Positions 32,960 to 47,497 of a DNA stretch of 57,876 bases are shown one piece after another. The position numbers and the translations under genes are program-made. This stretch comes from an uncultured Planctomycetales bacterium. GTDB taxonomy: Bacteria; Omnitrophota; Gorgyraeia; Zapsychrales; JAHFFX01. The notes under the pieces were generated by a model. The model saw only the letters and a list, made by a program, of their open reading frames with translations. It searched no databases and was not told the origin of the DNA. The stretch covers positions 1 to 57,876 of the forward strand of contig CAYJRN010000007.1 of NCBI GenBank assembly GCA_964372915.1, in the 5' to 3' direction. Each line of letters starts with the position of its first letter. The first letter of the stretch is position 1.

Positions 32960-34399
32960 ATGAAAGCGATGAAAACCATTATGAAAAATAAATTCTTTTC
33001 CAGCAAAGGACTAAGGACGGAGATGTTTATTGTTGTGGGCCTTATTTCGCTCATCATGCTGGGTTTTGCGGGCTATCTTTTTCCGGGCGTATTCTCATTT
33101 TTTGAGCGGTCTTCTTTGCCGTGGACGGTCATCATCAGCGTGCTTTTTTGGGGGATTATCTTCGTTATTCTCTGGCAGATCGTCGATCCGATCATCAAGC
33201 TCAGCCGGGAAGTGAAAAAAATTGCCAATGGAGATTTTAATCGGGAAATCGAGCTTTTTAGAGAAGATGAGATTGGGCAATTGGGAGAGGCCATCAACCG
33301 GATGACCCATCGGATCAAAGAAAATGTGGAGGAACTACAGAATTTCAGCAAAACAACCGAACAAATTAATACCGAAATCAACAAGCGGATTCTTATGCTT
33401 TCCCATATGCTGCAGATCAGCAACTTGATTGCGCAAAACGGTCCGTTCAAAGAGATTATTGACGTGGGGGTGGGCAAATGTCTCACCTCCGGGGTGATGA
33501 ATTTTGCCTGCCTTATCCTCAAAGATTCTGAAACCAGCGAGTTCCAAGTTCGGTTTATCGGCGGCGCCAGAGTCGAAGAATTGACGGAGAAAGGGGTCCA
33601 ATCGATTAAAGTCAAGGTGGGCGAAGGATTAATGGGCAAAGCCCTTCTTAAACAGGCCCCCATTGTTATTGATAAAGAAACGAACGCCAACGCCGAGATC
33701 GCGCAATTTCGGTCACTGTTTTCCGTCATCAACGCCATAATCGTTCCGGTCACGTCCAAAGGGAATGTTTATGGTTTGCTTATGGCGGGCAATGATACCA
33801 AGGATTTTGTTTTCATGAAAATGGACCACGAACTTGTGCAGGTCGTGGCCCGGCAAATCACAATCGCCAATACCAATGAACTTCTGCAAAAAGAGGTAGA
33901 GAAGCTGGAAGTGAAAGACAGGCTTACCGATCTTTTTAATCAGACCTATATACGCAGTTTTCTGAACGAAGAGATCAAGAAGGCTATGAATTTTCAGCGT
34001 CCATGTTCTTTGCTGCTTCTTACCATCGACCGTTTCGATGTGTTTCACGATACCTACGGACATATTGCGGTGGAAAATGTTCTTATCAAGATCGGATCGG
34101 TCCTTAAAGAAAACTTAAGCGCGGCGGATAAATCGGCTCGCTCCGACGATCATGAATTTGCTGTCATCTTACTGGAAAAGAATAAACGCCAATCCATCGC
34201 GGTGGCGGATTCCCTCCGAAAGAAAATCGAAGAAGTCTTTGTTCATGAAAAGGATTCCAACAAGAGGTTAACCTGCACCGGGGCCGTCACCGAGAACCCG
34301 ATTGATGGTGTCTCCGCCGATGAATTGATCGAAAAAGCACGGGAAATTCTTAAGGACGCGAAAAAGGGGGGCGGCAACCGCATTTGTTACAAGATATAA
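32960..34399 (+). CDS. HAMP-GAF-GGDEF domain protein with a degenerate active site (DDHEF)
   Basis: Two TM segments, a HAMP domain (SREVKKIANGDFNREIE), a GAF-like middle region, and a C-terminal GGDEF fold. In the GGDEF fold, GGDEF is replaced by DDHEF, TGLxNR by TDLFNQ, GD by VE, and no RxxD I-site is present. Confidence 0.75.
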   Translation: MKAMKTIMKNKFFSSKGLRTEMFIVVGLISLIMLGFAGYLFPGVFSFFERSSLPWTVIISVLFWGIIFVILWQIVDPIIKLSREVKKIANGDFNREIELFREDEIGQLGEAINRMTHRIKENVEELQNFSKTTEQINTEINKRILMLSHMLQISNLIAQNGPFKEIIDVGVGKCLTSGVMNFACLILKDSETSEFQVRFIGGARVEELTEKGVQSIKVKVGEGLMGKALLKQAPIVIDKETNANAEIAQFRSLFSVINAIIVPVTSKGNVYGLLMAGNDTKDFVFMKMDHELVQVVARQITIANTNELLQKEVEKLEVKDRLTDLFNQTYIRSFLNEEIKKAMNFQRPCSLLLLTIDRFDVFHDTYGHIAVENVLIKIGSVLKENLSAADKSARSDDHEFAVILLEKNKRQSIAVADSLRKKIEEVFVHEKDSNKRLTCTGAVTENPIDGVSADELIEKAREILKDAKKGGGNRICYKI

Positions 34400-34421: not shown

Positions 34422-34871
34422 ATGAAGCATTTTAAGAAAGCCACCAACAAACGTCTGGGAGAATTGTTGATTGAACGAGGTACCATCAATCAGGATCAAC
34501 TGGAAATGGCGCTGGCCTATCAGAAGGAAAAAGGCGGCCTTTTCGGGGAGGTTCTGGTGATCTTAAAGTTTGCATCCGAGGAAGATATTGCCCGGGCCCT
34601 CACATCCCAATACGGGTTTCCTTATCTTCCCTTGTCCAGTTATGAGGTCGACCAGGATGTCATCAATACAGTTCCCGAAAACGTCTGCCGACAATTTTGT
34701 CTTGTCCCGATCGATAAAATCGGCAAAAGCTTGACCCTGGCGATGGCCGATCCTTTGAATGTCCAAGCGGTGGAGGATGTGGAATTGATTACGGGCTGTG
34801 TCGTACAAACCTTCGTCAGCACTAGCACCGATATAAAAAATACCGTTAATAAATATTACAAGCATAAATAA
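34422..34871 (+). CDS. stand-alone T2SSE_N / MshEN-type domain protein
   Basis: 149 aa. RLGELLIERGTINQDQLEMALAYQ, then KEKGG, then LFGEVLVILKFASEEDIARALTSQ match two tandem 24-aa MshEN motifs with a 5-aa spacer. The rest resembles the GspE/PilB N-terminal domain (LTLAMADPLN). Confidence 0.8.
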   Translation: MKHFKKATNKRLGELLIERGTINQDQLEMALAYQKEKGGLFGEVLVILKFASEEDIARALTSQYGFPYLPLSSYEVDQDVINTVPENVCRQFCLVPIDKIGKSLTLAMADPLNVQAVEDVELITGCVVQTFVSTSTDIKNTVNKYYKHK

Positions 34872-36619
34872 TGTTTCCCCTTAAGGATCGCCTCAAAGAG
34901 ATTCTTATCCGCGACAACATCCTTAAGCCCGAGGATTTGGAACGGGCCCTTGAGGAGCAGAAAAAATCCGGGGGGGAGCTCAGTAAGATTCTTGTCAGAC
35001 TTAAGCTCATCAATGAAGATGATCTCGCGCTTCTTCTCCCCGAAAGTTTAGAGTTGCCGCTTATCGACATTTCGCGTCTGAAGATTGATCCCGCCGTCAT
35101 CAAAATCATTTCTCAAGAAGCGGCTCAGAAATACCAAATCATTCCCATTTCCAAGATCGGCGATCAGTTGACCCTTGCGATGGCGGATCCTTTGAATATC
35201 TTTGCCATTGACAATGTCGTTGCCTTGACGGGATTGAAGATCACTCCCATCATCAGCCGTTCTCGCGATATCCAACGCGCGATCCAGGCGTATTATCCTG
35301 TGCCTTCCGCAGGCCATGCCGAAAAATTCGAAGAGATCATGAAGGATATCAAGGAAACCGAAGAGATGGAGCTCATCAAGGAGACTGGAGAGATGGATAA
35401 GGCCTCCATCGAGACCTTGAGCCAGGAAGCCCCCATCATGAAACTCACGGATGTCATCATTAGACAGGCCGTCGCGGCGAAAGCGAGCGACGTGTTCATC
35501 GAGCCCTTGGAAAAGACTTTGCGCATCCGTTACCGGATTGACGGGATTATCCGCGAGATCGATCAGATGTCGAAGATTTTGCATTTTCCAATCATCTCCC
35601 GCATCAAGGTGATATCGAGTTTGGATATTTCCGAACACCGTCTTCCCCAGGACGGCCGGTTCAAGACGATCTTAGAAGGTAATAAAGAGGTCGATTTTCG
35701 GGTCAGCGTCTTGCCTACGATCCTTGGAGAGAAAGCGGTGTTAAGATTGCTCGACAAGAATACGGGGATGGTGGACATTGAAAAGTTGGGGTTCCCTGTC
35801 GATTCTTTGGAGCGTTTGAAAGAAGCCTCGCAGCGGCCTCACGGGATGATCCTCACCTGTGGTCCAACGGGTTCAGGAAAGACAACAACTCTTTATTCGA
35901 TTCTTAAGTATATTGATTCTCCCGGCAGGAATATCGTGACTGTTGAGGACCCGGTCGAATTCCAGATGAAGGGAATTAATCAAGTGAACGTCAAGCCCAG
36001 TGCGGGGCTTTCGTTTGCGGCCGCGCTTCGTTCGATTTTACGTCAGGATCCCGACGTTATTCTCATTGGCGAAATCCGCGATGGGGAGACGCTCGATATC
36101 GCCGTCAAGGCGGCATTGACCGGTCATCTGGTTCTTAGTTCCCTGCATACGACTACCGCCGCCGGATCAATCGTGCGCATGATGAACATGGGGATTGAGG
36201 CGTTTCTTATCTGTTCTTCGGTCAACGCCATTGTTGCCCAGCGGCTTTTAAGGAAACTCTGTTCCTACTGCAAAGAGTCGTATGCGCTTGATAAGGATGC
36301 TTGTGAGAAATTGGGAATCAGGAAAGCCGGTGCCCACGCAGAATTAAAAATTTTCCGACCTAAAGGCTGCAAGCAATGTTTCAATACCGGATATAGCGGA
36401 CGCGTGGGGATTACCGAGATTCTGATTCTCACCTCCAATGTGAAAGAGCTTATCCTTTCGGGCGCTAGTGAGTTTAAAATCAAAGACACCGGTCGTCAGG
36501 AGGGGATGACGACCATGCGCGAGGACGGATTATCCAAAGCCGTCGCGGGGTTGACGTCGCTTGAGGAGGTCTTGAGGGTGACGGCCGCCGATGAAAAGAT
36601 CATAAAGAGCCATGAGTGA
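34871..36619 (+). CDS. pilB: type IV pilus assembly ATPase PilB/GspE family, paralog 1
   Basis: T2SSE_N domain, Walker A GPTGSGKTTT, Asp/His boxes, and a tetracysteine motif CSYC...CKQC. The start overlaps the upstream stop (TAATG). Confidence 0.9.
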   Translation: MFPLKDRLKEILIRDNILKPEDLERALEEQKKSGGELSKILVRLKLINEDDLALLLPESLELPLIDISRLKIDPAVIKIISQEAAQKYQIIPISKIGDQLTLAMADPLNIFAIDNVVALTGLKITPIISRSRDIQRAIQAYYPVPSAGHAEKFEEIMKDIKETEEMELIKETGEMDKASIETLSQEAPIMKLTDVIIRQAVAAKASDVFIEPLEKTLRIRYRIDGIIREIDQMSKILHFPIISRIKVISSLDISEHRLPQDGRFKTILEGNKEVDFRVSVLPTILGEKAVLRLLDKNTGMVDIEKLGFPVDSLERLKEASQRPHGMILTCGPTGSGKTTTLYSILKYIDSPGRNIVTVEDPVEFQMKGINQVNVKPSAGLSFAAALRSILRQDPDVILIGEIRDGETLDIAVKAALTGHLVLSSLHTTTAAGSIVRMMNMGIEAFLICSSVNAIVAQRLLRKLCSYCKESYALDKDACEKLGIRKAGAHAELKIFRPKGCKQCFNTGYSGRVGITEILILTSNVKELILSGASEFKIKDTGRQEGMTTMREDGLSKAVAGLTSLEEVLRVTAADEKIIKSHE

Positions 36620-38315
36620 AACTCTTAAGGAAAAGATCCTGAAGGCCCTTGTTGAGCAAAAACGCCTCAACCAGGCGGAGCTGGATAGTATCTTGGATTT
36701 GCAGAAATCGAGGAAGATGAGTCTTGATAAAATCCTCATCGAAAAAGGGCTTATCAGCGAGAAAGAACTTTTAGTCTTTCTGGTCAAAGAGCTCCATATC
36801 CCGTCTATCAATCTTAGCAAGTATAAAATTGACCCCAGCCTTAAAGATATTATTCCCGAACGCATCGCCAGGCAATATCGCATGATCCCCTTTTCCAAGT
36901 TAGGGAGTACCGTTACTGTTGCCCTTTCCAATCCTTTGAACATTTTCGCCATCGATGATCTCAAGAATATCACGGGAAAAGATATCGATGTCATCATGAG
37001 CACTGACACCGAGATTATGAAGGCCATCGATGCCTATTACGGGACACAAGGCACGGCGAGTGTCACCGATATCAGGAAGGATATTTCGGTCAAGGATATG
37101 GAAATTCTTTTAGAACAGGACAAGGAGGTGGAGGAAGTCGCGGAAGAAGGCAACCGGGCCCCCATTATCCGCATGGTGGATCTGGTCATTAAAGAAGCCC
37201 TTAAGCAACGCGCTTCCGATATTCATATGGAACCGACCACCGAGGCGATGCGGGTCCGTTATCGTATCGACGGGCTTTTGCAGGATATTCTTGATATCCC
37301 CCGAGAGAATATGGGGGCCGTCACGGCGCGTATCAAAATTATGTCGAGGCTGGATATCACCGTCAACCGTCTTCCTCAGGACGGACGTTTCAAGGTGCGT
37401 ACCTCCCACCAAGAAGTCGATTTTCGTGTGTCGCTTTTACCGACCATCTTCGGACAGAAAATCGTCTTGAGAGTCTTGGATAAGAAAAATTTACGGATCG
37501 GGCTCGAGGGTTTGGGATTTTCTAAAAAAAATTTTGAACTTCTCAAAAGGGGAATCGCTAAACCCTTCGGAATGATCTTGGTGACCGGCCCCACCGGGAG
37601 CGGAAAGTCCACGACCCTTTATTCCATCATCAACCAGTTAAATTCCGTTGACAGGAATATCATCACTATCGAAGATCCGGTTGAGTATCTAGTTGACGGA
37701 CTGACCCAGATCCAGGCGCGGCCCGAGATTGGTCTCACGTTCGCCTCTGGATTAAGGGCGATCTTGCGCCAAAGCCCGGATATTGTTATGGTCGGTGAAA
37801 TTCGCGATAACGAAACGGCCGATATCGCGATCAAGGCTTCTCTGACGGGTCAGTTGGTCTTATCGACTTTGCACACCAATGATGCCACTGGTGCGCTTAC
37901 GCGCCTGGTGGATATGGAAGTCGAGCCGTTCCTGGCCGCATCCAGCCTGATCATGGTTTGCGCCCAGCGTTTGTGTCGTCTCATTTGTCCCAACTGCAAA
38001 GAGCCCACGGAAATCTCCGAAAAAGTCTTGAAAGAATTAGGGCTCAAGGCCAAACCCTCGACCTTTTATCACGGCAAGGGATGTAAGACGTGCCGTCAAT
38101 CGGGATGTTTAGGCAGGACCGTTATTTCTGAAATTTTAGATGTGGATGATGAAATACGTGAGATGCTGATCAAGGGTACGGCCGCTGACCAGATTAGAGG
38201 TTATGCCATCAAGGAAAAGAGCATGACGTTGCTTTGGGACGATGCGCTCGAAAAGTTTAAAGGCGGATTGATTTCGGTGGAAGAGGTCTTGAGGGTTGTA
38301 TCGAAAGAGGAATGA
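36612..38315 (+). CDS. type IV pilus/T2SS ATPase PilB/GspE family, paralog 2
   Basis: Walker A GPTGSGKSTT and CPNC...CKTC. Has an 8-nt overlap with paralog 1. Confidence 0.9.
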   Translation: MSETLKEKILKALVEQKRLNQAELDSILDLQKSRKMSLDKILIEKGLISEKELLVFLVKELHIPSINLSKYKIDPSLKDIIPERIARQYRMIPFSKLGSTVTVALSNPLNIFAIDDLKNITGKDIDVIMSTDTEIMKAIDAYYGTQGTASVTDIRKDISVKDMEILLEQDKEVEEVAEEGNRAPIIRMVDLVIKEALKQRASDIHMEPTTEAMRVRYRIDGLLQDILDIPRENMGAVTARIKIMSRLDITVNRLPQDGRFKVRTSHQEVDFRVSLLPTIFGQKIVLRVLDKKNLRIGLEGLGFSKKNFELLKRGIAKPFGMILVTGPTGSGKSTTLYSIINQLNSVDRNIITIEDPVEYLVDGLTQIQARPEIGLTFASGLRAILRQSPDIVMVGEIRDNETADIAIKASLTGQLVLSTLHTNDATGALTRLVDMEVEPFLAASSLIMVCAQRLCRLICPNCKEPTEISEKVLKELGLKAKPSTFYHGKGCKTCRQSGCLGRTVISEILDVDDEIREMLIKGTAADQIRGYAIKEKSMTLLWDDALEKFKGGLISVEEVLRVVSKEE

Positions 38316-38423
38316 GCATGGGAAGTCTTCGCTTATTGAAAGGTCTAGGGCGAATCAATTTTTTTTGTGAATTCGTTTTGTGATTGAAAAATTTTGTCAT
38401 AGAATGAAGGCAAAGGAACGCCT

Positions 38424-38876
38424 ATGGCTGATAACATCGAGGAACTGCTTCTTAACAAACAACCCTTAGGTTCTATTCTTCTAGAGCGCAAGATGATCAC
38501 TCAAAAGCAGTTGGACGAGGCGCTGGTTATTCAAAAAAAAGAAGAGGGATTTTTAGGAGAGATTCTCGTCAAGCTGGGATTCCTCCTTGAACGAGACATT
38601 GTGGCGGCTTTGGTTGTACAATGTAATTTTGCCTACATTGCCGTCAATAAATACGAGATCGATCCCAAAATGATTGAATTGATTCCGATTCAAGTGGCGC
38701 GGAAGTTTCAGGTCGTTCCGCTGGATTGCGTGGGGGATGTCTTGAGTGTCGTGATGGTGAACCCTTTTATTTTTTCGATGAAGAATGAGCTGGAACGCTT
38801 GACGGGTTGCAAAATCGCCACCTTCATTGCCACGCGGACCGAAATCCATCAGGCCATTGAACGTTGGTACAATTAA
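38424..38876 (+). CDS. stand-alone T2SSE_N / MshEN-type domain protein, second copy
   Basis: 150 aa. PLGSILLERKMITQKQLDEALVIQ, then KKEEG, then FLGEILVKLGFLLERDIVAALVVQ, followed by a GspE_N-like remainder. Confidence 0.8.
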   Translation: MADNIEELLLNKQPLGSILLERKMITQKQLDEALVIQKKEEGFLGEILVKLGFLLERDIVAALVVQCNFAYIAVNKYEIDPKMIELIPIQVARKFQVVPLDCVGDVLSVVMVNPFIFSMKNELERLTGCKIATFIATRTEIHQAIERWYN

Positions 38877-38888
38877 GAGACAATAGAA

Positions 38889-40094
38889 ATGTTGACTTTC
38901 AAATATGTTGTCAAAGATCAAGATGCCCGTACTGTAACGGGAAAGATGCAGGCTGATAGTCAGGCGATCGTCATCGACGAGTTGCGCAAGCGTAAGCATA
39001 CCATTATTTCTATCGTTCAGGTCAAGGACGCTCCATTCCTCCAATGGTTGCCGCGCGGTAAAAAAGTAAAAGGGGATGACCTGGTGATTTTTATTCGTCA
39101 GTTCTCGACGATGGTGGAGGCGGGGATTCCCATCTTGGAATGCCTGGAGGCTCTGCAGGAGCAGATGACCGATCCAACCTTCCGGTCCGTCATTGGTGCG
39201 GTGAAGGAAGACATTCAACTGGGCACCAGTCTTTCGGCGACCTTCGCCAAACACCCGACCGTCTTCGACAAATTGTTTGTCAGTATGGTTAAAGTCGGCG
39301 AGACAGGCGGTGTCTTAAGTACAATCTTGGATCGCATGTCCGGTTATATGGAAAAAAGTTTAAAGCTCAAACATAAAGTGCAGTCGGCGATGATCTATCC
39401 ATCGGTGGTTGTTAGCATGGCCATTATTATCACCATTGTCCTTTTGGTCAAAGTCGTTCCGACCTTTGCCTCCATTTATACGTCTTTCGGTCGGGAATTA
39501 CCGGTGATGACGCAGCTTCTGATCAGTATCAGTAGTGGCCTTAAGACCCAATTGGTGTATTACATTGTGGGTTTGATTATTTTGGGGATCGCTGTCAATC
39601 GGATTTATCAGACAGAAAAAGGGGCCCTGGTTTTAGATAGTGCCAAACTCAAAATGCCGGTTTTCGGAGATTTGATTCGCAAAGTGGCCATTAGCCGTTT
39701 CGCGCGAACTCTCGCCACCTTAACGCAAAGCGGTGTCCCTATCTTGGAATCTCTGGATATCGTTGAGACAACCTGTGGCAATAAAGTATTGGAAGTCGTT
39801 ATTGAATCTGTGAAGAACAATGTGCGCGAAGGAGAGAGCATCGCTGGCCCATTAATCAAAAGCGGTGTTTTCCCTCCGATGGTAACGCGCATGATTTCCA
39901 TCGGGGAAAAATCGGGGCAGCTCGAGAAAATGCTCGCGAAGGTTGCCGAATTCTACGATGATCAGGTGGATACGGCCGTGGCGGGCTTAACCAGCATCAT
40001 CGAACCGCTGATTATCGGATTCTTGGGAATTGTTGTCGGTTTCATTGTCATTGCTTTGTTTTTACCGATTATCAGCATTACAACGATTTTGTAA
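38889..40094 (+). CDS. pilC: type IV pilus platform protein PilC (GspF family)
   Basis: 401 aa with a duplicated GspF domain, 3 TM segments, and EAGIPILECLE / QSGVPILESLD motifs. Confidence 0.9.
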   Translation: MLTFKYVVKDQDARTVTGKMQADSQAIVIDELRKRKHTIISIVQVKDAPFLQWLPRGKKVKGDDLVIFIRQFSTMVEAGIPILECLEALQEQMTDPTFRSVIGAVKEDIQLGTSLSATFAKHPTVFDKLFVSMVKVGETGGVLSTILDRMSGYMEKSLKLKHKVQSAMIYPSVVVSMAIIITIVLLVKVVPTFASIYTSFGRELPVMTQLLISISSGLKTQLVYYIVGLIILGIAVNRIYQTEKGALVLDSAKLKMPVFGDLIRKVAISRFARTLATLTQSGVPILESLDIVETTCGNKVLEVVIESVKNNVREGESIAGPLIKSGVFPPMVTRMISIGEKSGQLEKMLAKVAEFYDDQVDTAVAGLTSIIEPLIIGFLGIVVGFIVIALFLPIISITTIL

Positions 40095-40110
40095 TAACCG
40101 GAGGTCCAAA

Positions 40111-41220
40111 GTGTCTAAAAATAATATTTTGAAAATGGTTTTGGCAGGATTTTTGATGGTGCTTTTGCAAGGCCGCCTTGGCGCGGAAGCGGGGGAAGGG
40201 CCCTCGAGGACGGAACATCTTTTTGCCATCTTGTCGGAGCTTCAACAAGGCGCTCAGGATTTGCTGCACGAACGGGAGGATCTCAGAGGCAAAGTTCCGG
40301 CGCTTAAAAAACAGATGGAAGAACTGCAATATGATTTAAAGGCAGCCCAAGATCGCGACGATAAGTTGAACGTGGCTATCCGGGAACTGAGTAACGAGGA
40401 AAAAAGCTTCTCTCCCGGCCATGAAAATCTGAAAGAGCGGTTGAAAGAAATTGCTTTAAAAAAGTTTCCCCTGCAGGAGATCGTGGAGCGGCACGAGCAG
40501 GAGATTAAGGAAAAGAATAATAAAAAGGAGTCGCTCAAGACACAAGAGGTATCCCTCCAAGGACAGAATGAAGGTCTTCGAAAAGATAACGAATCCTTGA
40601 GGCAGTTCACAAAAAATGTTTCCCAGCGGCTGGAGGATCTTAAAGCTATCCTCAATGACATGGATGAGAAGACGACTCCCCAGGAGCTCAGCTCAAAAGT
40701 TACCAATGTGGGTGTCGCGCGCGCGCTAAAAGATGAAACGCGTAAAAGTATCAACTTAAGCCAAGAACATCAAAGCAACCTCCAAAAACAGATTGAGTCT
40801 TGGCAACAAATTTCTCTTTCCAACACACAGAAGACGCAAGAATTTAAGTCTCAACAGGATCAGTCTTCAAGAGAGATGAGGGATTTAGAGAACAGGTTGA
40901 AAATTCTCGATGCAGAGGCCCTCCAAATTCCTCAAGAAACCGCCGCCCGGCGGGACGAAGCCCTCGGCCGGCTCAATGCCCTTAAGGAAGAAATCGATGA
41001 TCTCAAAGCGCAGCGGGCCGAGTCTGCGGGATTTGTGGACTCCGCGCGGGAGATCCTTGATAGAAAAAGGATTGTTGCCGCCCAGATTCCTCTTAGTGAG
41101 GAACAATTGCAGGAGAACGCAGAAATCTTGATGGGGGAAAACGACGCCTTGAAATTGGAATTAGAACGTCTTAAGAAAACTAAACTGATCTTGAGTGGAC
41201 AAGAAACAAAGATGGAATAA
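40111..41220 (+). CDS. secreted coiled-coil protein of unknown function
   Basis: GTG start at 40111 with a GGAGG RBS at 40100. It has a signal peptide (MVLAGFLMVLLQGRLGAEA) and then about 330 aa of E/K/Q/L-rich heptad-like sequence. Confidence 0.55.
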   Translation: MSKNNILKMVLAGFLMVLLQGRLGAEAGEGPSRTEHLFAILSELQQGAQDLLHEREDLRGKVPALKKQMEELQYDLKAAQDRDDKLNVAIRELSNEEKSFSPGHENLKERLKEIALKKFPLQEIVERHEQEIKEKNNKKESLKTQEVSLQGQNEGLRKDNESLRQFTKNVSQRLEDLKAILNDMDEKTTPQELSSKVTNVGVARALKDETRKSINLSQEHQSNLQKQIESWQQISLSNTQKTQEFKSQQDQSSREMRDLENRLKILDAEALQIPQETAARRDEALGRLNALKEEIDDLKAQRAESAGFVDSAREILDRKRIVAAQIPLSEEQLQENAEILMGENDALKLELERLKKTKLILSGQETKME

Positions 41221-41245: not shown

Positions 41246-41638
41246 ATGAAACCTCATAAGAGCGGTTTTACCTTGGTTGAGATTATGATCGTCGTCGCTA
41301 TCATTGCCTTGCTGGCGGCGGTCGCTCTCCCCAATCTCTTAAGATCAAAAATGCTTGCCAACGATGCGGCGGCCCAGAGTCATCTTAAAGCGCTGTCCAC
41401 TTCCTCGGAAACCTTCGCCTCCATTAATAACGGAAGTTATCCAGCCGATGTTACGTCTTTAACCGGTCTCACCCCGCCCTATATCTCTCAAGCTTTTTGC
41501 GGGGCAACCATGTCGGGGTATTCTTTTGTTTGCGCATTTCCCGTTAGTGGCTATACATTTGTCGCAACGCCGGTGACCGTGGGCAGTTCGGGGACTACAA
41601 CTTACACGATAACGACAGGCTCTATTATGACGCCTTAA
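41246..41638 (+). CDS. type IV pilin / pseudopilin (prepilin N-methylation site)
   Basis: MKPHKSG|FTLVEIMIVVAIIALLAA has a class III signal, Glu+5 and a C-terminal Cys pair. Confidence 0.85.
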   Translation: MKPHKSGFTLVEIMIVVAIIALLAAVALPNLLRSKMLANDAAAQSHLKALSTSSETFASINNGSYPADVTSLTGLTPPYISQAFCGATMSGYSFVCAFPVSGYTFVATPVTVGSSGTTTYTITTGSIMTP

Positions 41639-41658
41639 AGGGGTAGAAAGACTGCGGA

Positions 41659-41687
41659 TTGACAAGCTTTGGGAGGGATGTTATACT
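41659..41687 (+). promoter_or_regulatory. consensus sigma70-type promoter
   Basis: TTGACA-17 nt-TATACT, 21 nt after the pilin-1 stop. Confidence 0.55.
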
Positions 41688-41712
41688 TTCATCAGAATTA
41701 AGAAAAGACCTT

Positions 41713-41790
41713 GTGGAAATGGTAAACTACTCGTAAGGGTGGGGCACAAAGCTAGAGGGCCCTTTAAAAAGAATCGCAAAGGGTAGCCAG
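41713..41790 (+). ncRNA. candidate c-di-GMP-I (GEMM-I) riboswitch aptamer
   Basis: GGUAAAC-CUACUC-GUAA-GGGUGG-GGCACAAAGC parallels V. cholerae Vc2 GGCAAAC-CCAUUC-GAAA-GAGUGG-GACGCAAAGC (recalled from memory), with an apparent C-G to U-A covariation. A second helix is formed by GCUA/UAGC plus CCCUUU/AAAGGG and ends in GGGUAGC. The aptamer lies between a consensus promoter and an intrinsic terminator. Confidence 0.55.
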
Positions 41791-41816
41791 CTGCTGAAAC
41801 AAGAGAAGCGAAAGGG

Positions 41817-41854
41817 CCTATTCTACGAGCAGGAAGTCGAAGAATAGGTTTTTT
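41817..41854 (+). terminator. intrinsic terminator (candidate riboswitch expression platform)
   Basis: cctattctacga / tcgaagaatagg is a 12-bp stem with 1 mismatch and an 8-nt loop, followed by TTTTTT. Confidence 0.75.
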
Positions 41855-41912
41855 ATTGTCCGAGTTCGATGTGTGATTGTTACTTAAGAACATCAAAAAA
41901 GCGGGAAAGAAA

Positions 41913-41941
41913 TTGACAAGTAATTTGTTGATTGATAAGAT
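41913..41941 (+). promoter_or_regulatory. sigma70-like promoter within the repeated pilin leader (copy 1)
   Basis: TTGACA-17 nt-TAAGAT, about 180 nt upstream of the pilin ATG at 42122. Confidence 0.45.
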
Positions 41942-42121
41942 AAATTCGCGTTTTAAGTTATCAACGTGATGAGGAGCCGGTAAGTCACATCCCTCAAGGG
42001 CCAGAATTTTGTGAGAGGTAAGGACCGTTCTTATTCATTCGATCTTTCTTGCCTGGATTCTGGGATGAGTGAAGTAACTGGAAACGGCTTAAACCAGGAT
42101 CAAGATAAGGATGGTAATTCT

Positions 42122-42514
42122 ATGAGAAGGAATCGTAAGGGTTTCACGCTGGTGGAAATCATGATCGTTGTGGCCATCATCGCGTTGCTAGCGGCGATCG
42201 CCATACCGAACTTACTCAGGGCGAAGATTTCCGCGAATGATGCTTTGGCCAAAGGGACATTGAGATCGCTCTCAACTGCCTCGGAGACGTTTGCCACATC
42301 GAGCTCTGGTAACTACCCGGGCGCCATCACATCTTTAACCGGTGCCACACCGCCGTATATTACAACGAATTACTGCGGGGCGACCTTGTCGGGTTATACG
42401 TATGATTGCACCTTTGCTGCTGGTGGTTATACGATTGTTGCCACGCCGGTCACCGTTGGTACGTCGGGTACGACGACCTACACGATATCAACGGGCGCTG
42501 TGCTGACTCCTTAA
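42122..42514 (+). CDS. type IV pilin, duplicated paralog A
   Basis: MRRNRKG|FTLVEIMIVVAIIALLAA, with an AAGGA RBS 10 nt upstream. In-frame upstream starts (42065 ATG, 42011 GTG) would give a long leader peptide and are less likely. Confidence 0.85.
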   Translation: MRRNRKGFTLVEIMIVVAIIALLAAIAIPNLLRAKISANDALAKGTLRSLSTASETFATSSSGNYPGAITSLTGATPPYITTNYCGATLSGYTYDCTFAAGGYTIVATPVTVGTSGTTTYTISTGAVLTP

Positions 42515-42523
42515 GAGGATAGA

Positions 42524-42552
42524 TTGACAAGGTCCCGGATGCAGGTTATACC
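42524..42552 (+). promoter_or_regulatory. sigma70-like promoter
   Basis: TTGACA-17 nt-TATACC, followed by a small hairpin (cttgc-N8-gcaag, 42556-42573) and the repeated terminator. Confidence 0.45.
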
Positions 42553-42582
42553 TTTCTTGCAAGTGAAAGCAAGACATGGGGG

Positions 42583-42620
42583 CCTATTCTACGAGCAGGA
42601 AGTCGAAGAATAGGTTTTTT
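42583..42620 (+). terminator. intrinsic terminator (repeat copy 2)
   Basis: Same hairpin and T6 as 41817-41854. Confidence 0.7.
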
Positions 42621-42678
42621 ATTGTCCGAGTTCGATGTGTGATTGTTACTTAAGAACATCAAAAAAGCGGGAAAGAAA

Positions 42679-42707
42679 TTGACAAGTAATTTGTTGATTG
42701 ATAAGAT
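42679..42707 (+). promoter_or_regulatory. sigma70-like promoter within the repeated pilin leader (copy 2)
   Basis: Same TTGACA-17 nt-TAAGAT as 41913-41941. Confidence 0.45.
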
Positions 42708-42887
42708 AAATTCGCGTTTTAAGTTATCAACGTGATGAGGAGCCGGTAAGTCACATCCCTCAAGGGCCAGAATTTTGTGAGAGGTAAGGACCGTTCTTAT
42801 TCATTCGATCTTTCTTGCCTGGATTCTGGGATGAGTGAAGTAACTGGAAACGGCTTAAACCAGGATCAAGATAAGGATGGTAATTCT

Positions 42888-43280
42888 ATGAGAAGGAATC
42901 GTAAGGGTTTCACGCTGGTGGAAATCATGATCGTTGTGGCCATCATCGCGTTGCTAGCGGCGATCGCCATACCGAACTTACTCAGGGCGAAGATTTCCGC
43001 GAATGATGCTTTGGCCAAAGGGACATTGAGATCGCTCTCAACTGCCTCGGAGACGTTTGCCACATCGAGCTCTGGTAACTACCCGGGCGCCATCACATCT
43101 TTAACCGGTGCCACACCGCCGTATATTACAACGAATTACTGCGGGGCGACCTTGTCGGGTTATACGTATGATTGCACCTTTGCTGCTGGTGGTTATACGA
43201 TTGTTGCCACGCCGGTCACCGTTGGTACGTCGGGTACGACGACCTACACGATGACCACGGGTGGGACGCTGACTCCGTAA
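42888..43280 (+). CDS. type IV pilin, duplicated paralog B
   Basis: Protein identical to paralog A except for the C-terminal tail (TYTMTTGGTLTP versus TYTISTGAVLTP). Confidence 0.85.
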   Translation: MRRNRKGFTLVEIMIVVAIIALLAAIAIPNLLRAKISANDALAKGTLRSLSTASETFATSSSGNYPGAITSLTGATPPYITTNYCGATLSGYTYDCTFAAGGYTIVATPVTVGTSGTTTYTMTTGGTLTP

Positions 43281-43328
43281 TCTAAGCGTTTTTCAGTTTT
43301 TTTCAGTCCAGGAGTCTTTAAGTTTTTT

Positions 43329-43370
43329 CAAACAAAGGGGGGCCTTTTAAAAAAGGCCCCCCTTTGTTTG
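43329..43370. terminator. 20-bp perfect-stem hairpin, likely bidirectional terminator
   Basis: caaacaaaggggggcctttt aa aaaaggcccccctttgtttg, 49 nt after the pilin B stop. Confidence 0.75.
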
Positions 43371-43481
43371 AAGCGTGACAGCTAAGACCTATCAGGCGAT
43401 CTATCTAGAGAAAGAAGTAAAAATAATTATGAAACTTCCCCCCCAAAAACCGCGCAATTTTGGTACAATATTAGCTGTCTT

Positions 43482-44561
43482 ATGAATCGGTTATTGGAAA
43501 AATATTTTGCGGCTGTCAAAAATTTTATCCCTCAGAGGTCCAAAGCTTCCAGTGTCGGCATGGACATCGGTAATGATTCTGTTAAATTGATAGAGCTCAT
43601 CCGATCAGCCGATTCCTATCAACTTGTCCATTGGGGGATTGAACCCATTGAGGGAAACAGCGCCGCAGCCGCCGTCAAAAAGATCTTGGAAAAGTTTGAG
43701 ATCCAAACCAAGTCTCCGGCGACTGCTGTCTTTGGGAAAGGAACCCTCATCCGGTACATTGATTTGCCGCGGATGTCCCTTGAAGAGCTTAAAAAATCGT
43801 TTGCTTTCGAGTCGGACAAGCATTTGCCCTTCCCGCAGAACCAAATTTTTACCGACTGTTTTATTTTGGATCCTCATGGTAAAGATAAGACGATGTCGGT
43901 TCTGGTGGCAGCCTCGAAAAAGGAAATTGTCAATGAGCGGATTCAACTTCTTTCCCAACTGGGATTGCGGCCGAACACGATTAGTATCAACGCCATCGCT
44001 ATCGCCAATGTCTTTCATACATTAGGTTTGAATGGGGAGGATGCGTCCCTCGCCTCTGCGTCGCCGGAGGCTAAATCGTCGGCGGCGGCCGTCTTGGATA
44101 TGGGAGAGAATGTCAGTAACCTTATGGTCCTCAAAGGTCATTTACCTTGTTTCAATCGCGATATTTTTATCGGGGGACAGGAATTGGATAAACGTATCGC
44201 TAATGTCTTGGGCGTGAATGTTGCCGATGCAAAGAAAATCAAGTTGGATCCCAAGGATAAACAAGAGACAGTTTTAGGCGCTTGCGAATCGATTTTGAGC
44301 GGTTTGATTTCCGAAATCAGGCTTTCCTTTGATTATTTCATTACGGAAAAAAACTCACCTATCGCCAAATTGTATCTCGCCGGTGGAAATGCGAATGTGA
44401 ACGGGATCGTGAATCTTTTTGCCAAAAGCCTGGACTTGCCGGTTGAGCTTTGGAACCCGATTCTCTCTTTAAAGGTGTCACCGGGGCTTTCGATGGAAGA
44501 ACTTAATAAAAATGCGAGCCGATTAGGCGTGGCATTAGGATTAGCCCTTTATTCAGAATGA
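43482..44561 (+). CDS. pilM: type IV pilus assembly protein PilM
   Basis: Actin-like ATPase fold (GMDIGNDSVKLIEL). Sits upstream of pilNOPQ with a 4-nt overlap. Confidence 0.85.
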   Translation: MNRLLEKYFAAVKNFIPQRSKASSVGMDIGNDSVKLIELIRSADSYQLVHWGIEPIEGNSAAAAVKKILEKFEIQTKSPATAVFGKGTLIRYIDLPRMSLEELKKSFAFESDKHLPFPQNQIFTDCFILDPHGKDKTMSVLVAASKKEIVNERIQLLSQLGLRPNTISINAIAIANVFHTLGLNGEDASLASASPEAKSSAAAVLDMGENVSNLMVLKGHLPCFNRDIFIGGQELDKRIANVLGVNVADAKKIKLDPKDKQETVLGACESILSGLISEIRLSFDYFITEKNSPIAKLYLAGGNANVNGIVNLFAKSLDLPVELWNPILSLKVSPGLSMEELNKNASRLGVALGLALYSE

Positions 44562-45142
44562 TTACCATCAATCTCGTCCCAGGGAATTTAAGAAAAAAGC
44601 GTAAAAGCCTGCTGTTCCCGATGGCGCTCAATCTTCCCAAGGAGGCAATTATTGGCCTTGTGGGCGGACTGTTGGTACTGTTGGTTCTTGCGCATGTGAT
44701 TCTGCAGGCCTTTATTTTTTTACGCTTCGCTCAGCAAGCATCTATAAAACAAAAGATGGATAAGATTCAGACGGATAAGACGAACGTGGATCGGGTGGTG
44801 ACGCGGTTGCGCGCGCTTCAGGCCAAGGTCCAATCGATTGAAAATTTGACGGTATCTCAGAGAATTTTATGGTCGCAAAAGCTCAATGACTTAAGCGACA
44901 GTATCCCAAGAGGAATTTGGCTGACGAAAATGTCGCTGGAGGCGAGGGTCCTGCTCATAGAAGGCAGTGCCGTCTCCAAGAATCAAAATGAGATGATTAG
45001 CCCCAACAATTTTGTATCTTTGCTCAAGGCGCAAGAACGTTTTGTTGCCGATCTTTCGACGCTGGAAGTCGGAGTTGTTCAGAGGCGAAAAGTTTTATCC
45101 ACGGAAGTGGCCGATTTTTCCATTACGGCAAAATTGAAGTAA
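44558..45142 (+). CDS. pilN: type IV pilus assembly protein PilN
   Basis: N-terminal ITINLVP motif, a single TM segment and a coiled coil. Confidence 0.8.
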   Translation: MITINLVPGNLRKKRKSLLFPMALNLPKEAIIGLVGGLLVLLVLAHVILQAFIFLRFAQQASIKQKMDKIQTDKTNVDRVVTRLRALQAKVQSIENLTVSQRILWSQKLNDLSDSIPRGIWLTKMSLEARVLLIEGSAVSKNQNEMISPNNFVSLLKAQERFVADLSTLEVGVVQRRKVLSTEVADFSITAKLK

Positions 45143-45145
45143 ATC

Positions 45146-45751
45146 ATGCTCGAGAATATCTTAAGCAACATTTCAAAAATTGATGAGAAAACCCGGTATT
45201 ATATTTTAGGGGGAGGATTGGTCCTTATTTTCTTGGCGGATTATTTTGTTGTGATGAATCCGCAGTTAAAAACATTGGGAACAATCAATTCCAAGATCCT
45301 TCAGTTGTCGAAGGATTTTAAAACCGCCAAAGAAGAAATCGGCAAGACCCGCCAGTACCATCAGGAGGTTGTAAAATTTAGAGAACAGCTTAAGAAGGAC
45401 GAGCGCCGCATCATCAAGAACGAAGAGGTCAATTCAGTTTTGGAAGCCATCTCAAGGATGGCGCGCGAAGAGAATATAAGGGTCGATCAGATCATGCCCA
45501 TCGTTGGATCCGAAAAGGTGCTTTTAAAGAACAGAGACGAGAAATATTATTCGCTTCCCATTATGGTGACCGTCCGCTGCGGCTACCATGATTTGGGGAG
45601 ATTTTTAAACCGCGTTGAGAACGGCGACATTTTTTTGGATATCAGCGATTTTTCTATTGCCGCCAGCAGCGATGATTCAATGCGACATGCCATAAAAATT
45701 ACTTTTAAAGTGGTAGCTTTTGAAAAAGTCGAGAGTCAGGATAGCAAATGA
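45146..45751 (+). CDS. pilO: type IV pilus assembly protein PilO
   Basis: TM segment plus coiled coil plus ferredoxin-like C-terminus. Assigned by position in the pilMNOPQ operon. Confidence 0.7.
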   Translation: MLENILSNISKIDEKTRYYILGGGLVLIFLADYFVVMNPQLKTLGTINSKILQLSKDFKTAKEEIGKTRQYHQEVVKFREQLKKDERRIIKNEEVNSVLEAISRMAREENIRVDQIMPIVGSEKVLLKNRDEKYYSLPIMVTVRCGYHDLGRFLNRVENGDIFLDISDFSIAASSDDSMRHAIKITFKVVAFEKVESQDSK

Positions 45752-46092
45752 ATTGGCTCATCGTATTCTTCGTGTTGGTCTTGAGTGTCGCGTCTTATGG
45801 CGAAGAGAGTGTGTCCAAATATGAAGATCACGGCAAGCGCGATCCCTTCTGGCGGTTGGTCTCGCCGAGCGGCGCCATTCTCAGCCTCGATAACGATCTT
45901 TCGGCCACGGATATGGTCTTGGAAGGGGTCATTCAGGACCAGACGGGCAAGAATTTGGCTATCATCAATAGTGTGGTGGTCGCCCCTGGCGACAAGATAG
46001 GGTTGTTCGAGGTGACGAGCGTGGGAAAAGATGGCGTTACTTTGAGCAAGGGAGATGAAAAATTTGTGCTCAAATTAAAAAAGGAGCAATGA
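45748..46092 (+). CDS. pilP: PilP-like small periplasmic protein
   Basis: Signal peptide, RDPF motif, a small beta-domain, and position directly upstream of the secretin gene. Confidence 0.6.
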   Translation: MNWLIVFFVLVLSVASYGEESVSKYEDHGKRDPFWRLVSPSGAILSLDNDLSATDMVLEGVIQDQTGKNLAIINSVVVAPGDKIGLFEVTSVGKDGVTLSKGDEKFVLKLKKEQ

Positions 46093-46093
46093 T

Positions 46094-47497
46094 ATGGTGA
46101 AAAAATTTTCGATCGTATCAATCATAATAATTCTTTTTAATGCTCCTGGTTCTTTTGCTCAACACCCCTCGGGCGGTGACATCCCGCAGCCGGCCGCGCC
46201 TCCTTTGGCCACGGCGGATTCTTTAGATAATTCTTCTAAACCGATACAGCAAGACGGTGCAGTCAATAAAGAAGGTCTTGTTAATCTGGATTTTCGGGAG
46301 GCGGATATCCGCAATGTCTTGCGCATTCTGACTTATAAAAGCGGCGTTAACATCGTAGCGGGTCCGGAGGTCGTGGGGCTGGTGACAATTCAGCTCAATG
46401 ACGTGCCTTGGCTGCAGGCTTTGGATGTCATCCTTTCCACGCATGGTTATGGATATGACCGTAAAGGTAATATTATCACCGTTACAACAATTGAGAATCT
46501 GAAGAAAAGAAGAGAAGACGCTCAGCTCTTGGCCGATCAGGAGCCTTTGAGCACCAAGACCTATACCTTAAACTATGCTAAGGCCTCGGAAGCCACTACT
46601 TCTCTAGACAAGATCAGGTCATTGCGCGGAAGTGTTAACTTTGACGAGCGCACCAATTCACTCATCATAAGAGACATTCCCGCAAATTTGGAATTGATCG
46701 AGGGTGTCATCGAAAAGTTGGACGCAACGACGCCCCAAGTCTTGATCGAGGCGAAGATTGTCGAAACGAATTTGACCAATCAAGAGAATTTGGGTGTTGA
46801 TTGGGTGGTGAAGGCATCGACTGTGGGAAGCAAAAGACCGACCACTTGGCCTTTTACTAGGCGTTCGAACAACAAATTTGTTCCGGATAATATCCCCGCA
46901 GATACTACCGCGACGGATTTTAGTTATGGGACTCTTAATTTTTCTCAGGTTCAGGCGGTTCTGGAATTACTGCGTTCCCGGACCGATACCAACATCCTTT
47001 CCAACCCTAGGATCGTGACGCTGGACAATCAGAAGGCGAGTATTGTGGTGGGGAGCCAATATCCGATCCCGACCTATACCTATAATGAGGAACAGGCCAG
47101 GCTTCAGGTCTCGGGATGGGAATACATGGATATTGGTATCATTTTTGAGGTGACGCCGCACGTGAATAATGCCGGTATGGTCACGCTCGAAGTCCAACCA
47201 AAGGTGACGGACATTTTGGATTTTGTCACGGTGGAAAACACCTCCTTGCCCCGGTTAAGCAATGAGTCGGCGAGTACGAAGGTTTTAATTAAAAATGGAG
47301 AGACCTTGGTGATCGCGGGTTTGATCAAGGATAAAACGTCGGATATTAAGAAAAAAATTCCGATTATTGGTGATATCCCCATCCTGGGTCTCGCTTTTCA
47401 GAAATCCGAAAAGGCCGTGACCAAGACCGACTTGTTGATATTCGTCACTCCGCACATCATTACCCCGGAAACGCATGAAGACCTCGTTGAAAAATAA
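46094..47497 (+). CDS. pilQ: type IV pilus secretin PilQ (short form, no AMIN domains seen)
   Basis: Signal peptide, N0 domain (VNLDFREADIRNVLRIL), and secretin C-domain (IPIIGDIPILGLAFQ...DLLIFVTPHII). Confidence 0.85.
   Translation: MVKKFSIVSIIIILFNAPGSFAQHPSGGDIPQPAAPPLATADSLDNSSKPIQQDGAVNKEGLVNLDFREADIRNVLRILTYKSGVNIVAGPEVVGLVTIQLNDVPWLQALDVILSTHGYGYDRKGNIITVTTIENLKKRREDAQLLADQEPLSTKTYTLNYAKASEATTSLDKIRSLRGSVNFDERTNSLIIRDIPANLELIEGVIEKLDATTPQVLIEAKIVETNLTNQENLGVDWVVKASTVGSKRPTTWPFTRRSNNKFVPDNIPADTTATDFSYGTLNFSQVQAVLELLRSRTDTNILSNPRIVTLDNQKASIVVGSQYPIPTYTYNEEQARLQVSGWEYMDIGIIFEVTPHVNNAGMVTLEVQPKVTDILDFVTVENTSLPRLSNESASTKVLIKNGETLVIAGLIKDKTSDIKKKIPIIGDIPILGLAFQKSEKAVTKTDLLIFVTPHIITPETHEDLVEK

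Follow-up and report, generated by a model that had tools for sequence, protein, structure and literature searches.

Among the genes of a type IVa pilus operon in an uncultured bacterium are two that encode only the N-terminal domain of a PilB-type ATPase, placed on either side of two genes for complete PilB ATPases. The question raised by this locus is what such separate domains do beside a motor whose ATPases carry N-terminal domains of their own. The window, that is the whole stretch of DNA analysed, comprises 57,876 nucleotides (nt) of contig CAYJRN010000007.1 and stems from Candidatus Omnitrophota. The two small proteins, denoted S1 and S2, each consist of a whole MshEN/GSPII domain with a gene of its own within an Omnitrophota type IVa pilus operon, and the two ATPases between them are denoted PilBa and PilBb. 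The MshEN domain and its many architectures are already known (PMC5013675, Supplementary Table 4), as are PilB N-domains that do not bind cyclic di-GMP (c-di-GMP) and cofactors that act on PilB in trans. A stand-alone full MshEN protein that is encoded beside degenerate PilBs and apparently serves them was not found in the literature searched (stand-alone MshEN, single-domain GSPII, Omnitrophota pili, PA3740), which agrees with the view of the initial annotation of this DNA, made from the sequence alone, that the arrangement had not been characterised. Nor was a function for stand-alone MshEN proteins found in that literature. A truncated pilB fragment from Paenibacillus, considered as a precedent, is a different thing (PMC9765702).

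Coding block and motif state of the four N-domains

The four genes lie on the forward strand, with S1 (149 amino acids, aa) at positions 34422-34871, PilBa (582 aa) at 34871-36619, PilBb (567 aa) at 36612-38315 and S2 (150 aa) at 38424-38876. The stop codon of S1 and the start codon of PilBa share one nucleotide in the sequence TAATG at 34871, and an overlap of 8 nt, ATGAGTGA, joins PilBa to PilBb at 36612-36619. These open reading frames (ORFs) and overlaps are exactly those described initially. S1 and S2 match the Pfam family MshEN (PF05157) only and have no ATPase domain, whereas PilBa and PilBb contain MshEN as well as T2SSE (PF00437), the latter with scores of 454.9 bits (E = 1e-136) and 426.2 bits (E = 1e-127), respectively. 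The description of two small proteins with nothing but a PilB/GspE N-terminal domain, flanking two ATPases, thus holds. PilBa and PilBb share 42% identity and display the characteristics of PilB/GspE ATPases, including the ATPase core motifs (Walker A GPTGSGKT in PilBa and GPTGSGKS in PilBb, and a Walker B-like GEIRD in both), the tetracysteine (two CxxC motifs in each), an N-terminal GSPII domain and a position in a pil operon. Against TIGR02538 they score 648.9 and 597.1 bits, narrowly missing the equivalog cutoff of 675.65.

The four N-domains align without gaps across two half-motifs of 24 residues and a spacer of five residues, the layout that had been noticed from the sequence. In S1 the 53-residue motif, predicted to bind c-di-GMP, spans residues 11-63 (34452-34610) and reads RLGELLIERGTINQDQLEMALAYQ + KEKGG + LFGEVLVILKFASEEDIARALTSQ. 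The corresponding motif of S2, with the same predicted function, covers residues 14-66 (38463-38621) and reads PLGSILLERKMITQKQLDEALVIQ + KKEEG + FLGEILVKLGFLLERDIVAALVVQ. The motifs of the ATPases are degenerate and occupy residues 7-59 of PilBa (34889-35047; RLKEIL... / ELSKIL...PES) and residues 8-60 of PilBb (36633-36791; KILKAL... / SLDKIL...VKE). The NCBIfam model NF053729, a hidden Markov model (HMM) of the 53-residue c-di-GMP motif with a curated cutoff of 38 bits, gives 63.6 bits for S1 (E = 1e-17, model positions 1-53) and 55.9 bits for S2 (E = 3e-15, model positions 1-52), compared to 44.0-46.9 bits for PilBa and 29.7 bits for PilBb, and in this respect the stand-alone proteins are indeed the best matches to the motif. 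At E <= 1e-9, which corresponds to approximately the 38-bit cutoff, the model recognises 58/58 S1, 27/27 S2, 50/54 PilBa and 8/47 PilBb sequences.

Published binding studies indicate which positions of the motif matter. The backbone amide of the Gly at position 3 forms a hydrogen bond with guanine, and the G11L and G40I variants of the V. cholerae MshEN domain bind poorly or not at all (PMC5013675), while replacement of this Gly by Ala causes a 10-30-fold loss in a construct of GSPII-A from Thermus PilF (PMC12002112). [quoted passage not shown] The Arg at position 1, on the other hand, is dispensable: Lys or Leu can take its place, and very high affinity is expected where this residue is hydrophobic (PMC11731258).

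Motif statistics were obtained from unique orthologues (58 S1, 27 S2, 54 PilBa and 48 PilBb). Gly occupies position 3 of both half-motifs in all S1 and all S2 sequences. In PilBa it is found in 2% of the first half-motifs, with Lys, Thr or Gln in its place, and in 9% of the second, where Ser is found instead. In PilBb it is present in neither (0%), being replaced by Ile, Leu or Val in motif I and by Asp, Arg, Val or Glu in motif II. The residues in the window are Lys and Ser for PilBa and Leu and Asp for PilBb. The loss of the Gly of 'RLG' from the ATPases, which the initial annotation had located in the first repeat, is therefore real but not restricted to it, since both half-motifs of both proteins are affected. 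At position 24, Gln is present in 97% (motif I) and 100% (motif II) of S1 and in 100% of S2 for both motifs. PilBa retains it in 93% of the first half-motifs and has Gly, Ser or Ala in the second; for PilBb the first half-motif has Gln in 85% and the second has Glu in 81% of the sequences, so that the reported loss of the terminal Gln from the second repeat applies to both families. The hydrophobic positions 2, 17 and 21, which form the Leu triads, are kept in 97-100% of S1 and S2. PilBa also retains its Leu triad together with the Gln of motif I.

Position 1 is more variable. The first motif of S1 mostly starts with Gln or His (Arg in 2/58) and the second with Leu in 57/58, whereas S2 has Leu, Phe or Tyr in both; in the window, these residues are Arg and Leu in S1 and Pro and Phe in S2. 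PilBa has Arg in motif I and mostly Glu in motif II, and PilBb has Lys, Arg or Asn in motif I and Ser, Pro or Gly in motif II. The second repeat of S1 agrees with the strict 2016 consensus at 5/11 key positions, and agrees with the extended 2024 consensus (R/K/L)LG... (PMC11731258). Hydrophobic residues at position 1 are compatible with this extended consensus. In addition, basic residues are conserved ahead of motif I in S1, in the stretch [KR][KR]xxNK, and both PilBs have an acidic residue immediately before this motif.

The positions that are changed in the PilBs are those at which published mutants lose binding (PMC5013675, PMC12002112, PMC11731258). On this basis the N-domain of PilBb has, with near-certainty, largely lost its capacity to bind c-di-GMP, and that of PilBa has probably lost it, although for PilBa the argument depends on a few critical residues only, because the HMM still recognises this protein. 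S1 and S2, by comparison, probably bind c-di-GMP, and do so tightly, because they keep all residue classes of experimental importance and because a hydrophobic first residue is linked to nanomolar affinity in PilF GSPII-B.

Conservation, ancestry and fold of the stand-alone domains

The related loci examined numbered 11 from Omnitrophota genomes and 80 from metagenomes. The succession S1-PilBa-PilBb was found in every locus long enough to show all three genes, and the TAATG-type overlap (-1) between S1 and PilBa recurs in 20 loci. The arrangement is thus conserved and not sporadic, a point for which a survey of gene neighbourhoods had been recommended. S2 behaves differently: 42 loci contain both PilBb and PilC, and between these genes S2 is present in 24, no gene in 10 and a different gene in 8, leaving 18/42 without S2. 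Where S2 is present, it lies closer to PilC (median gap 20 nt, with a -4 overlap in 3 loci) than to PilBb (median gap 70 nt), and insertions are always located between PilBb and S2. In the window, likewise, S2 is uncoupled from PilBb, from which a 108-nt gap separates it, and lies 12 nt upstream of PilC. S1 is therefore universal in the clade, whereas S2 is accessory and coupled to PilC.

The median identity to the window protein is 69.5% for S1, as opposed to 59.3% for the PilBa N-domain and 57.1% for the PilBb N-domain. In 47-48/48 loci the conservation of S1 exceeds that of the PilB N-domains, and it is about equal to that of the ATPase cores; among the genes of the block, S1 is conserved best. 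PilBa has a length of 570-596 aa at every locus, and S1 and PilBa are always separate ORFs, never fused; a PilF-type chain, with at least two GSPII domains fused to one ATPase, was not observed. A candidate for a Rosetta-stone fusion of S1 and PilB, a 799-aa PilB from an Armatimonadota locus (L012), was rejected, as it contains a single MshEN domain and a C-terminal extension.

A neighbour-joining tree of the N-domains resolves four old paralogous lineages. The idea that S1 and S2 are recent copies of their neighbours' N-domains was rejected, as the pairings of S1 with PilBa-N and of S2 with PilBb-N were each recovered in 0/200 bootstrap replicates; at the level of these sequences, neither S1 nor S2 is derived from a neighbouring PilB N-domain. 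The assignment of one adaptor to each ATPase, which the initial annotation had put forward, is consequently not supported, given this absence of pairing, the universality of S1, the absence of S2 from many loci and its proximity to PilC.

Homologues of S1 comprise about 3,000 proteins of approximately 149 aa, and those of S2 345 proteins of approximately 150 aa, annotated as 'hypothetical protein' in Omnitrophota. Single-domain proteins of at most 210 aa account for about 48 of the top 150 MshEN representatives in a library of 1.84 billion proteins. At 41-50% identity, fusions of MshEN to PilZ are the multi-domain proteins nearest to S1, and the named examples come from Candidatus Omnitrophota. 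Multi-domain relatives recovered in the representative search are P0154, P0176, P0190, P0200, P0218, P0204, P0207 and P0156. In the MshEN-PilZ architecture a single protein carries c-di-GMP receptor domains of two different kinds, a combination that is absent from the 2016 table of MshEN architectures. In another relative, P0169, MshEN is fused to a DnaA-type ATPase.

Two more distant loci extend this picture. In a distant lineage (L010, 7967-12204) a short GGDEF gene and a PilT-like ATPase gene are followed by S1, PilBa, PilBb and PilC, without S2. The PilBa of this locus retains both motif glycines (RLG...Q / KIG...) and scores 66 bits against NF053729, beside an S1. Because S1 and a Gly-bearing PilBa occur together here, the decay of the PilB motifs appears to be later than the existence of S1, and the locus looks like an earlier stage that preceded this decay. 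In an Atribacterota genome (L013, 1087-1542) two genes for PilT-like ATPases flank one for a stand-alone MshEN protein of 151 aa whose motif is intact (63.5 bits), so that stand-alone MshEN proteins beside pilus ATPases are not confined to Omnitrophota. Metagenome-assembled genomes with this type of operon (L003, L006, L010 and L011; S1 identity 75-88%) are titled 'uncultured Planctomycetales/Planctomycetia bacterium', and these titles are probably taxonomic mislabels in public records.

An AlphaFold2 model of S1, for which the alignment was widened with the S2 family and the PilB N-domains, has a predicted local distance difference test score (pLDDT) of 89.9 and a predicted template modelling score (pTM) of 0.82; with 34 close homologues alone the pLDDT was 61.5. 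The model consists of helices 8-18, 24-37, 41-47 and 53-64, followed by three β-strands flanked by helices. S1 and S2 thus comprise a four-helix bundle, which is predicted to bind c-di-GMP, and a T2SSE_N1-like α/β subdomain, as deduced from model and sequence for S1 and from sequence for S2. Over its full length the S1 sequence matches Thermus PilF (E = 3e-41), Geobacter PilB (4e-27), M. xanthus PilB (8e-24) and V. cholerae MshE (5HTL, 3e-17), and S2 likewise matches solved MshEN/GSPII domains over its full length.

In a Foldseek comparison the S1 model can be related to known structures with overall template modelling (TM) scores of 0.65-0.86 (9G1W, 5HTL, 8PDK). The individual values are 0.86 for PilF GSPII-A, 0.71-0.75 for MshE with c-di-GMP (5HTL), 0.65-0.69 for PilF GSPII-B with c-di-GMP and 0.67 for the X. 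citri PilB-N:PilZ complex (7LKM). [quoted passage not shown] As this domain is the best structural match, N-cap occlusion was checked as a possible cause of non-binding in S1 and was rejected, since the occluding N-cap box is absent from the sequences of 58/58 S1 and 27/27 S2 proteins. In the model, the high rank of GSPII-A may reflect only an apo-like orientation of the two subdomains. The C-terminal subdomain of S1 matches the EpsE-N1:EpsL and GspE:GspL complexes in the Foldseek search. It is conserved to the same degree as the bundle predicted to bind the nucleotide, and contains an invariant QYGFPYLPL stretch. Cys89 and Cys93 of S1 (Cys-x3-Cys, 34686-34700) co-vary, with both Cys present in 45/58 sequences and both replaced in the rest, and Cys126 (34797-34799) is present in 55/58 and also conserved in S2. 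Judged from this pattern, the N1-like subdomain could use the cysteines for redox chemistry or to bind a metal.

A possible action of S1 in trans and competing explanations

Evidence for a relation between S1 and the motor was sought with a mirror-tree partial Mantel test over 27 loci, in which the background of RodA and PBP2 was regressed out (2,000 permutations). The strongest partial correlations of S1 are with PilBa-N (r = 0.52, p = 0.0025) and PilBb-N (r = 0.47, p = 0.001), followed by the ATPase cores of PilBa (r = 0.29, p = 0.0015) and PilBb (r = 0.25, p = 0.012) and by PilC (r = 0.22, p = 0.0165). The N-domains do not co-vary with their own cores (r = -0.02, p = 0.59 for PilBa; r = -0.09, p = 0.83 for PilBb). 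These values suggest that S1 co-evolves with both PilB N-domains and hint at a physical link between S1 and PilB.

The explanation favoured here, for which the chances are judged to be about even, is that c-di-GMP is sensed by S1, which then acts in trans on a motor of PilBa and PilBb, the N-domains of the motor itself having ceased to sense the nucleotide. In this scheme c-di-GMP would be bound, probably tightly, by S1 and, in loci that have it, by S2, while the tandem extension ATPases would largely have lost this ability in their own N-domains. Produced together with PilBa by means of the overlapping stop and start codons, S1 would dock through its N1-like subdomain on the N-domains of PilBa and PilBb, or on the site where these dock on PilM/PilC, and pilus extension would thereby become dependent on c-di-GMP in trans. 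S2 would be an optional second receptor linked to PilC. The recurrence of c-di-GMP turnover genes in the operon of related loci supports this proposal. In a more specific version, advanced tentatively, the motor could be a multi-GSPII ATPase divided among several proteins, in which an obligate, high-affinity S1 would dock on the degenerate N-domains of a mixed PilBa/PilBb motor and let c-di-GMP gate extension, while S2 would act on PilC. The suggestion of the initial annotation that sensing was moved from the ATPases onto separate proteins is in line with the complementary residue patterns found across the clade, but is weakened by the PilBa orthologues that still match the c-di-GMP-motif HMM.

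Several observations weigh against an action of S1 as a c-di-GMP receptor in trans. The window PilBa (44-47 bits) and 50/54 of its orthologues are still recognised by a curated model of the binding motif, and the Gln or His that opens motif I in most S1 orthologues is covered by neither published consensus. The structure closest to the S1 model is a non-binder, PilF GSPII-A. Moreover, GSPII-A restored to the full consensus still does not bind, and because of this failure a motif in itself is not decisive for binding. Mirror-tree analyses are prone to false positives, and S1 gives p < 0.02 with all pilus components. Finally, the only GGDEF gene in the window is degenerate, so that the window probably contains no cyclase.

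The persistent HMM matches of PilBa would be accommodated if PilBa, and perhaps PilBb, still bound c-di-GMP weakly, with S1 and S2 as extra receptors of higher affinity that add thresholds, in the manner of GSPII-B and GSPII-C of Thermus PilF. Such a tiered system would be compatible with the PilBa score above the 38-bit cutoff, with the retained Leu triad and motif I Gln, and with the large differences in affinity between GSPII domains within a single PilF motor. PilBa, however, is devoid of the position 3 Gly in both half-motifs and of Gln24 in motif II, and has mostly Glu at position 1 of motif II; single changes at such positions cost at least 10-30-fold in affinity or abolish binding, and PilBb is worse than PilBa on every count. 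Tiered sensing is for these reasons regarded as unlikely. An unlikely explanation, too, is that S1 and S2 mimic the N1 subdomain of PilB, compete for its docking site on PilM/PilC and so regulate extension negatively, c-di-GMP switching the competition. The resemblance of the S1 C-subdomain to the interface domains of EpsE-N1:EpsL and GspE:GspL, its conservation at the level of the bundle with the invariant QYGFPYLPL, and the tight coupling of S2 to PilC would all fit a role as decoy or brake, and regulation by small proteins directed at PilB has precedents (PMC11656802). A universal and translationally coupled protein that is more conserved than the N-domains of the motor nevertheless looks more like an obligate subunit, and the covariation of S1 is stronger with the PilB N-domains than with PilC, in a test that covered these N-domains, the ATPase cores and PilC.

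If c-di-GMP played no part at all, S1 and S2 might be structural subunits that scaffold the N-terminal ring or a stator adaptor, their motif residues merely holding the four-helix bundle together. Many motif positions do form the hydrophobic core of this bundle (PMC5013675), and PilF GSPII-A, with a near-consensus motif I, folds well, does not bind and is the best structural match of S1. Yet the PilB N-domains are well folded too, and the positions at which S1 and S2 differ from them are the ligand-contacting Gly3 and Gln24 rather than core positions. With the recurrent c-di-GMP turnover genes in the operon, the fusion of the nearest S1 relatives to PilZ and the absence of an N-cap box, a purely structural role is considered quite improbable. 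That the small ORFs are pilB fragments, pseudogenes or errors of assembly or annotation might be suspected from sources that call family members 'PilB', and from the Paenibacillus fragment, which encodes only the MshEN region (PMC9765702). This explanation is refuted by the conservation data and retains practically no likelihood: the homologues of S1 and S2 are numerous and of uniform size, more than 50 independent assemblies have identical gene boundaries and order, identities of 62-90% exceed those of the flanking genes, and the AlphaFold2 model shows a confident and complete fold.

Operon context and relation to known systems

The block forms part of a complete type IVa pilus cluster with the order MreD, PBP2, RodA; a HAMP-GAF-GGDEF protein; S1, PilBa, PilBb, S2; PilC; a coiled-coil ORF; three pilins; PilM, PilN, PilO; a 114-aa ORF; and the secretin PilQ. 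The four genes of the block with their motifs, the promoter-like match, the HAMP-GAF-GGDEF gene, PilC and the genes from the pilins to PilQ are on the forward strand. The platform protein PilC (38889-40094) is identified by Pfam T2SSF and the NCBIfam PilC models, and the remaining pilus genes, from the three pilins to PilQ (41246-47497, including PilM, PilN, PilO and the 114-aa ORF), by Pfam N_methyl, PilM_2, PilN, PilO and Secretin. The gap between PilBb and S2 contains a weak sigma-70-like promoter match, TTGTGA-16-TAGAAT (38378-38405), which fits at 9/12 positions and, as a consensus match only, is no evidence of function. The window contains no tRNA genes.

The pilin genes are located at 41246-41638, 42125-42514 and 42891-43280 (Pfam N_methyl). 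Their region has undergone a tandem duplication with a period of 766 nt, in which a 300-nt upstream segment is 100% identical (41814-42113 versus 42580-42879). The second and third pilins are near-identical and differ only near the C-terminus (YTISTGAVLTP versus YTMTTGGTLTP), and the pilin at 41246-41638 is more divergent. The coiled-coil ORF between PilC and the pilins (396 aa, 40030-41220) belongs to no Pfam family, and BLAST found no counterpart in the related loci. The gene content at this place varies within the clade.

The active site of the HAMP-GAF-GGDEF protein (32960-34399, Pfam), which ends 22 nt upstream of S1, is degenerate. Where solved cyclases have RYGGDEF/RYGGEEF, the aligned window sequence is RSDDHEF, and an RxxD I-site is missing. 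Orthologues, which are accessory and occur in about half of the loci, have GDHEF or GDDEF, the second Gly always being lost. This neighbour of the predicted c-di-GMP receptor S1 is therefore, judging from its active-site residues, probably not a cyclase, and it was rejected as a local source of c-di-GMP. Domain searches of the window proteins revealed no PilZ or EAL domain.

Related loci harbour other signalling genes in the slot between PilBb and PilC. Among them are genes for REC-HD-GYP or HD-GYP proteins whose HHExxDGxG and GYP motifs are intact, for a cyclase of 313 aa that has RYGGEEF as well as an RxxD I-site, and for AGDEF-STAND-HEAT proteins of about 1,370 aa. Slot genes were located in L066, L082 and L085 (about 14.1-15.2 kb in L066), L094 (9300-9992), L078 (13887-14828 and 15888-19997), L088 (13905-18038), L023 (13890-16124) and L033 (13907-15535). 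In some of the related loci HEAT-repeat proteins are encoded directly upstream of S2, a pair that recalls a split version of M. xanthus FrgA (MshEN-UNK-HEAT).

V. cholerae MshE, the founding member of the MshEN domain, has the same two-subdomain fold as S1, to which it is related at the TM score and E-value given above (the latter from phmmer). Like S1 and S2, it contains two 24-residue half-motifs, a five-residue spacer, Gly3, the Leu triad and Gln24. The MshE domain, however, is fused to the ATPase that it regulates, whereas here it is a separate protein of about 150 aa and the copies on the ATPases are degenerate; in addition, the Arg at position 1 is mostly replaced in S1 (Gln or His) and S2 (Leu or Phe). 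PilF from Thermus thermophilus, whose domains are the best matches of S1 by both sequence and structure, contains three N-terminal GSPII domains, of which A is non-binding, B binds c-di-GMP with an affinity of 6 nM and C with one of about 300 nM. As in PilF, several MshEN-type domains surround one motor in the Omnitrophota system, some predicted to bind and some degenerate, and motif II of GSPII-B begins with Leu, as in S1; S2 is also hydrophobic at this position (Phe in the window). Unlike PilF, in which all domains reside in one chain with one ATPase, the Omnitrophota system has its intact domain in a separate gene and has two ATPase paralogues. The system may by analogy work like the multi-GSPII ATPase of Thermus with the sensing domain split off; it resembles PilF but is not a member of that family.

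A second analogy is provided by the PilB-PilZ-FimX systems of Xanthomonas and Pseudomonas, in which the PilB N-domain does not bind the nucleotide and receives the signal from docked proteins that have genes of their own. The logic proposed here resembles that of these adaptors of non-binding PilBs, and the S1 model is similar to the X. citri PilB N-domain in its complex with PilZ (7LKM). The receptor in those systems is a degenerate EAL domain (FimX) that is bridged by a PilZ protein, whereas that role would here fall to a paralogue of the PilB N-domain, and the window lacks PilZ and EAL genes and has a degenerate GGDEF protein without an RxxD I-site; the Omnitrophota system is accordingly not placed in the PilZ-FimX family. 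P. aeruginosa PA3740 is likened to S1 by its description only: it is a small, c-di-GMP-binding MshEN-type protein with a divergent T2SSE_N1 and no ATPase, and has a link to surface motility (PMC5013675), but in the literature searched it is not described beside pilB genes or paired with degenerate PilBs. Systems with two extension ATPases have been described before (PMC11656802). In Acinetobacter baylyi, PilB and TfpB serve one pilus (PMC11656802), and PilBa and PilBb appear to be alike in serving a single type IVa pilus. Unlike TfpB, however, PilBa and PilBb reach only 462-465 bits against the TfpB model (cutoff 850), they are adjacent and translationally coupled paralogues, and for PilB/TfpB no stand-alone MshEN partner is described.

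Receptors for c-di-GMP remain greatly outnumbered by the enzymes that synthesise and degrade it. The operon is a natural test case in this respect, as throughout a clade an intact sensor motif is found on a small separate protein and the critical residues are lost from both adjacent ATPases, and all four N-domains are small and directly testable in vitro. Should S1 convey c-di-GMP signals to the motor in trans, it would represent a new kind of PilB cofactor beside PilZ, FimX and others, with a paralogue of the PilB N-domain turned into a diffusible adaptor for the second messenger, and the system would show how a fused regulatory domain can pass to a paralogue. It would also provide a first function for the large class of stand-alone MshEN proteins. 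For the Omnitrophota, which are uncultivated, the regulation of the pilus bears on their way of life.

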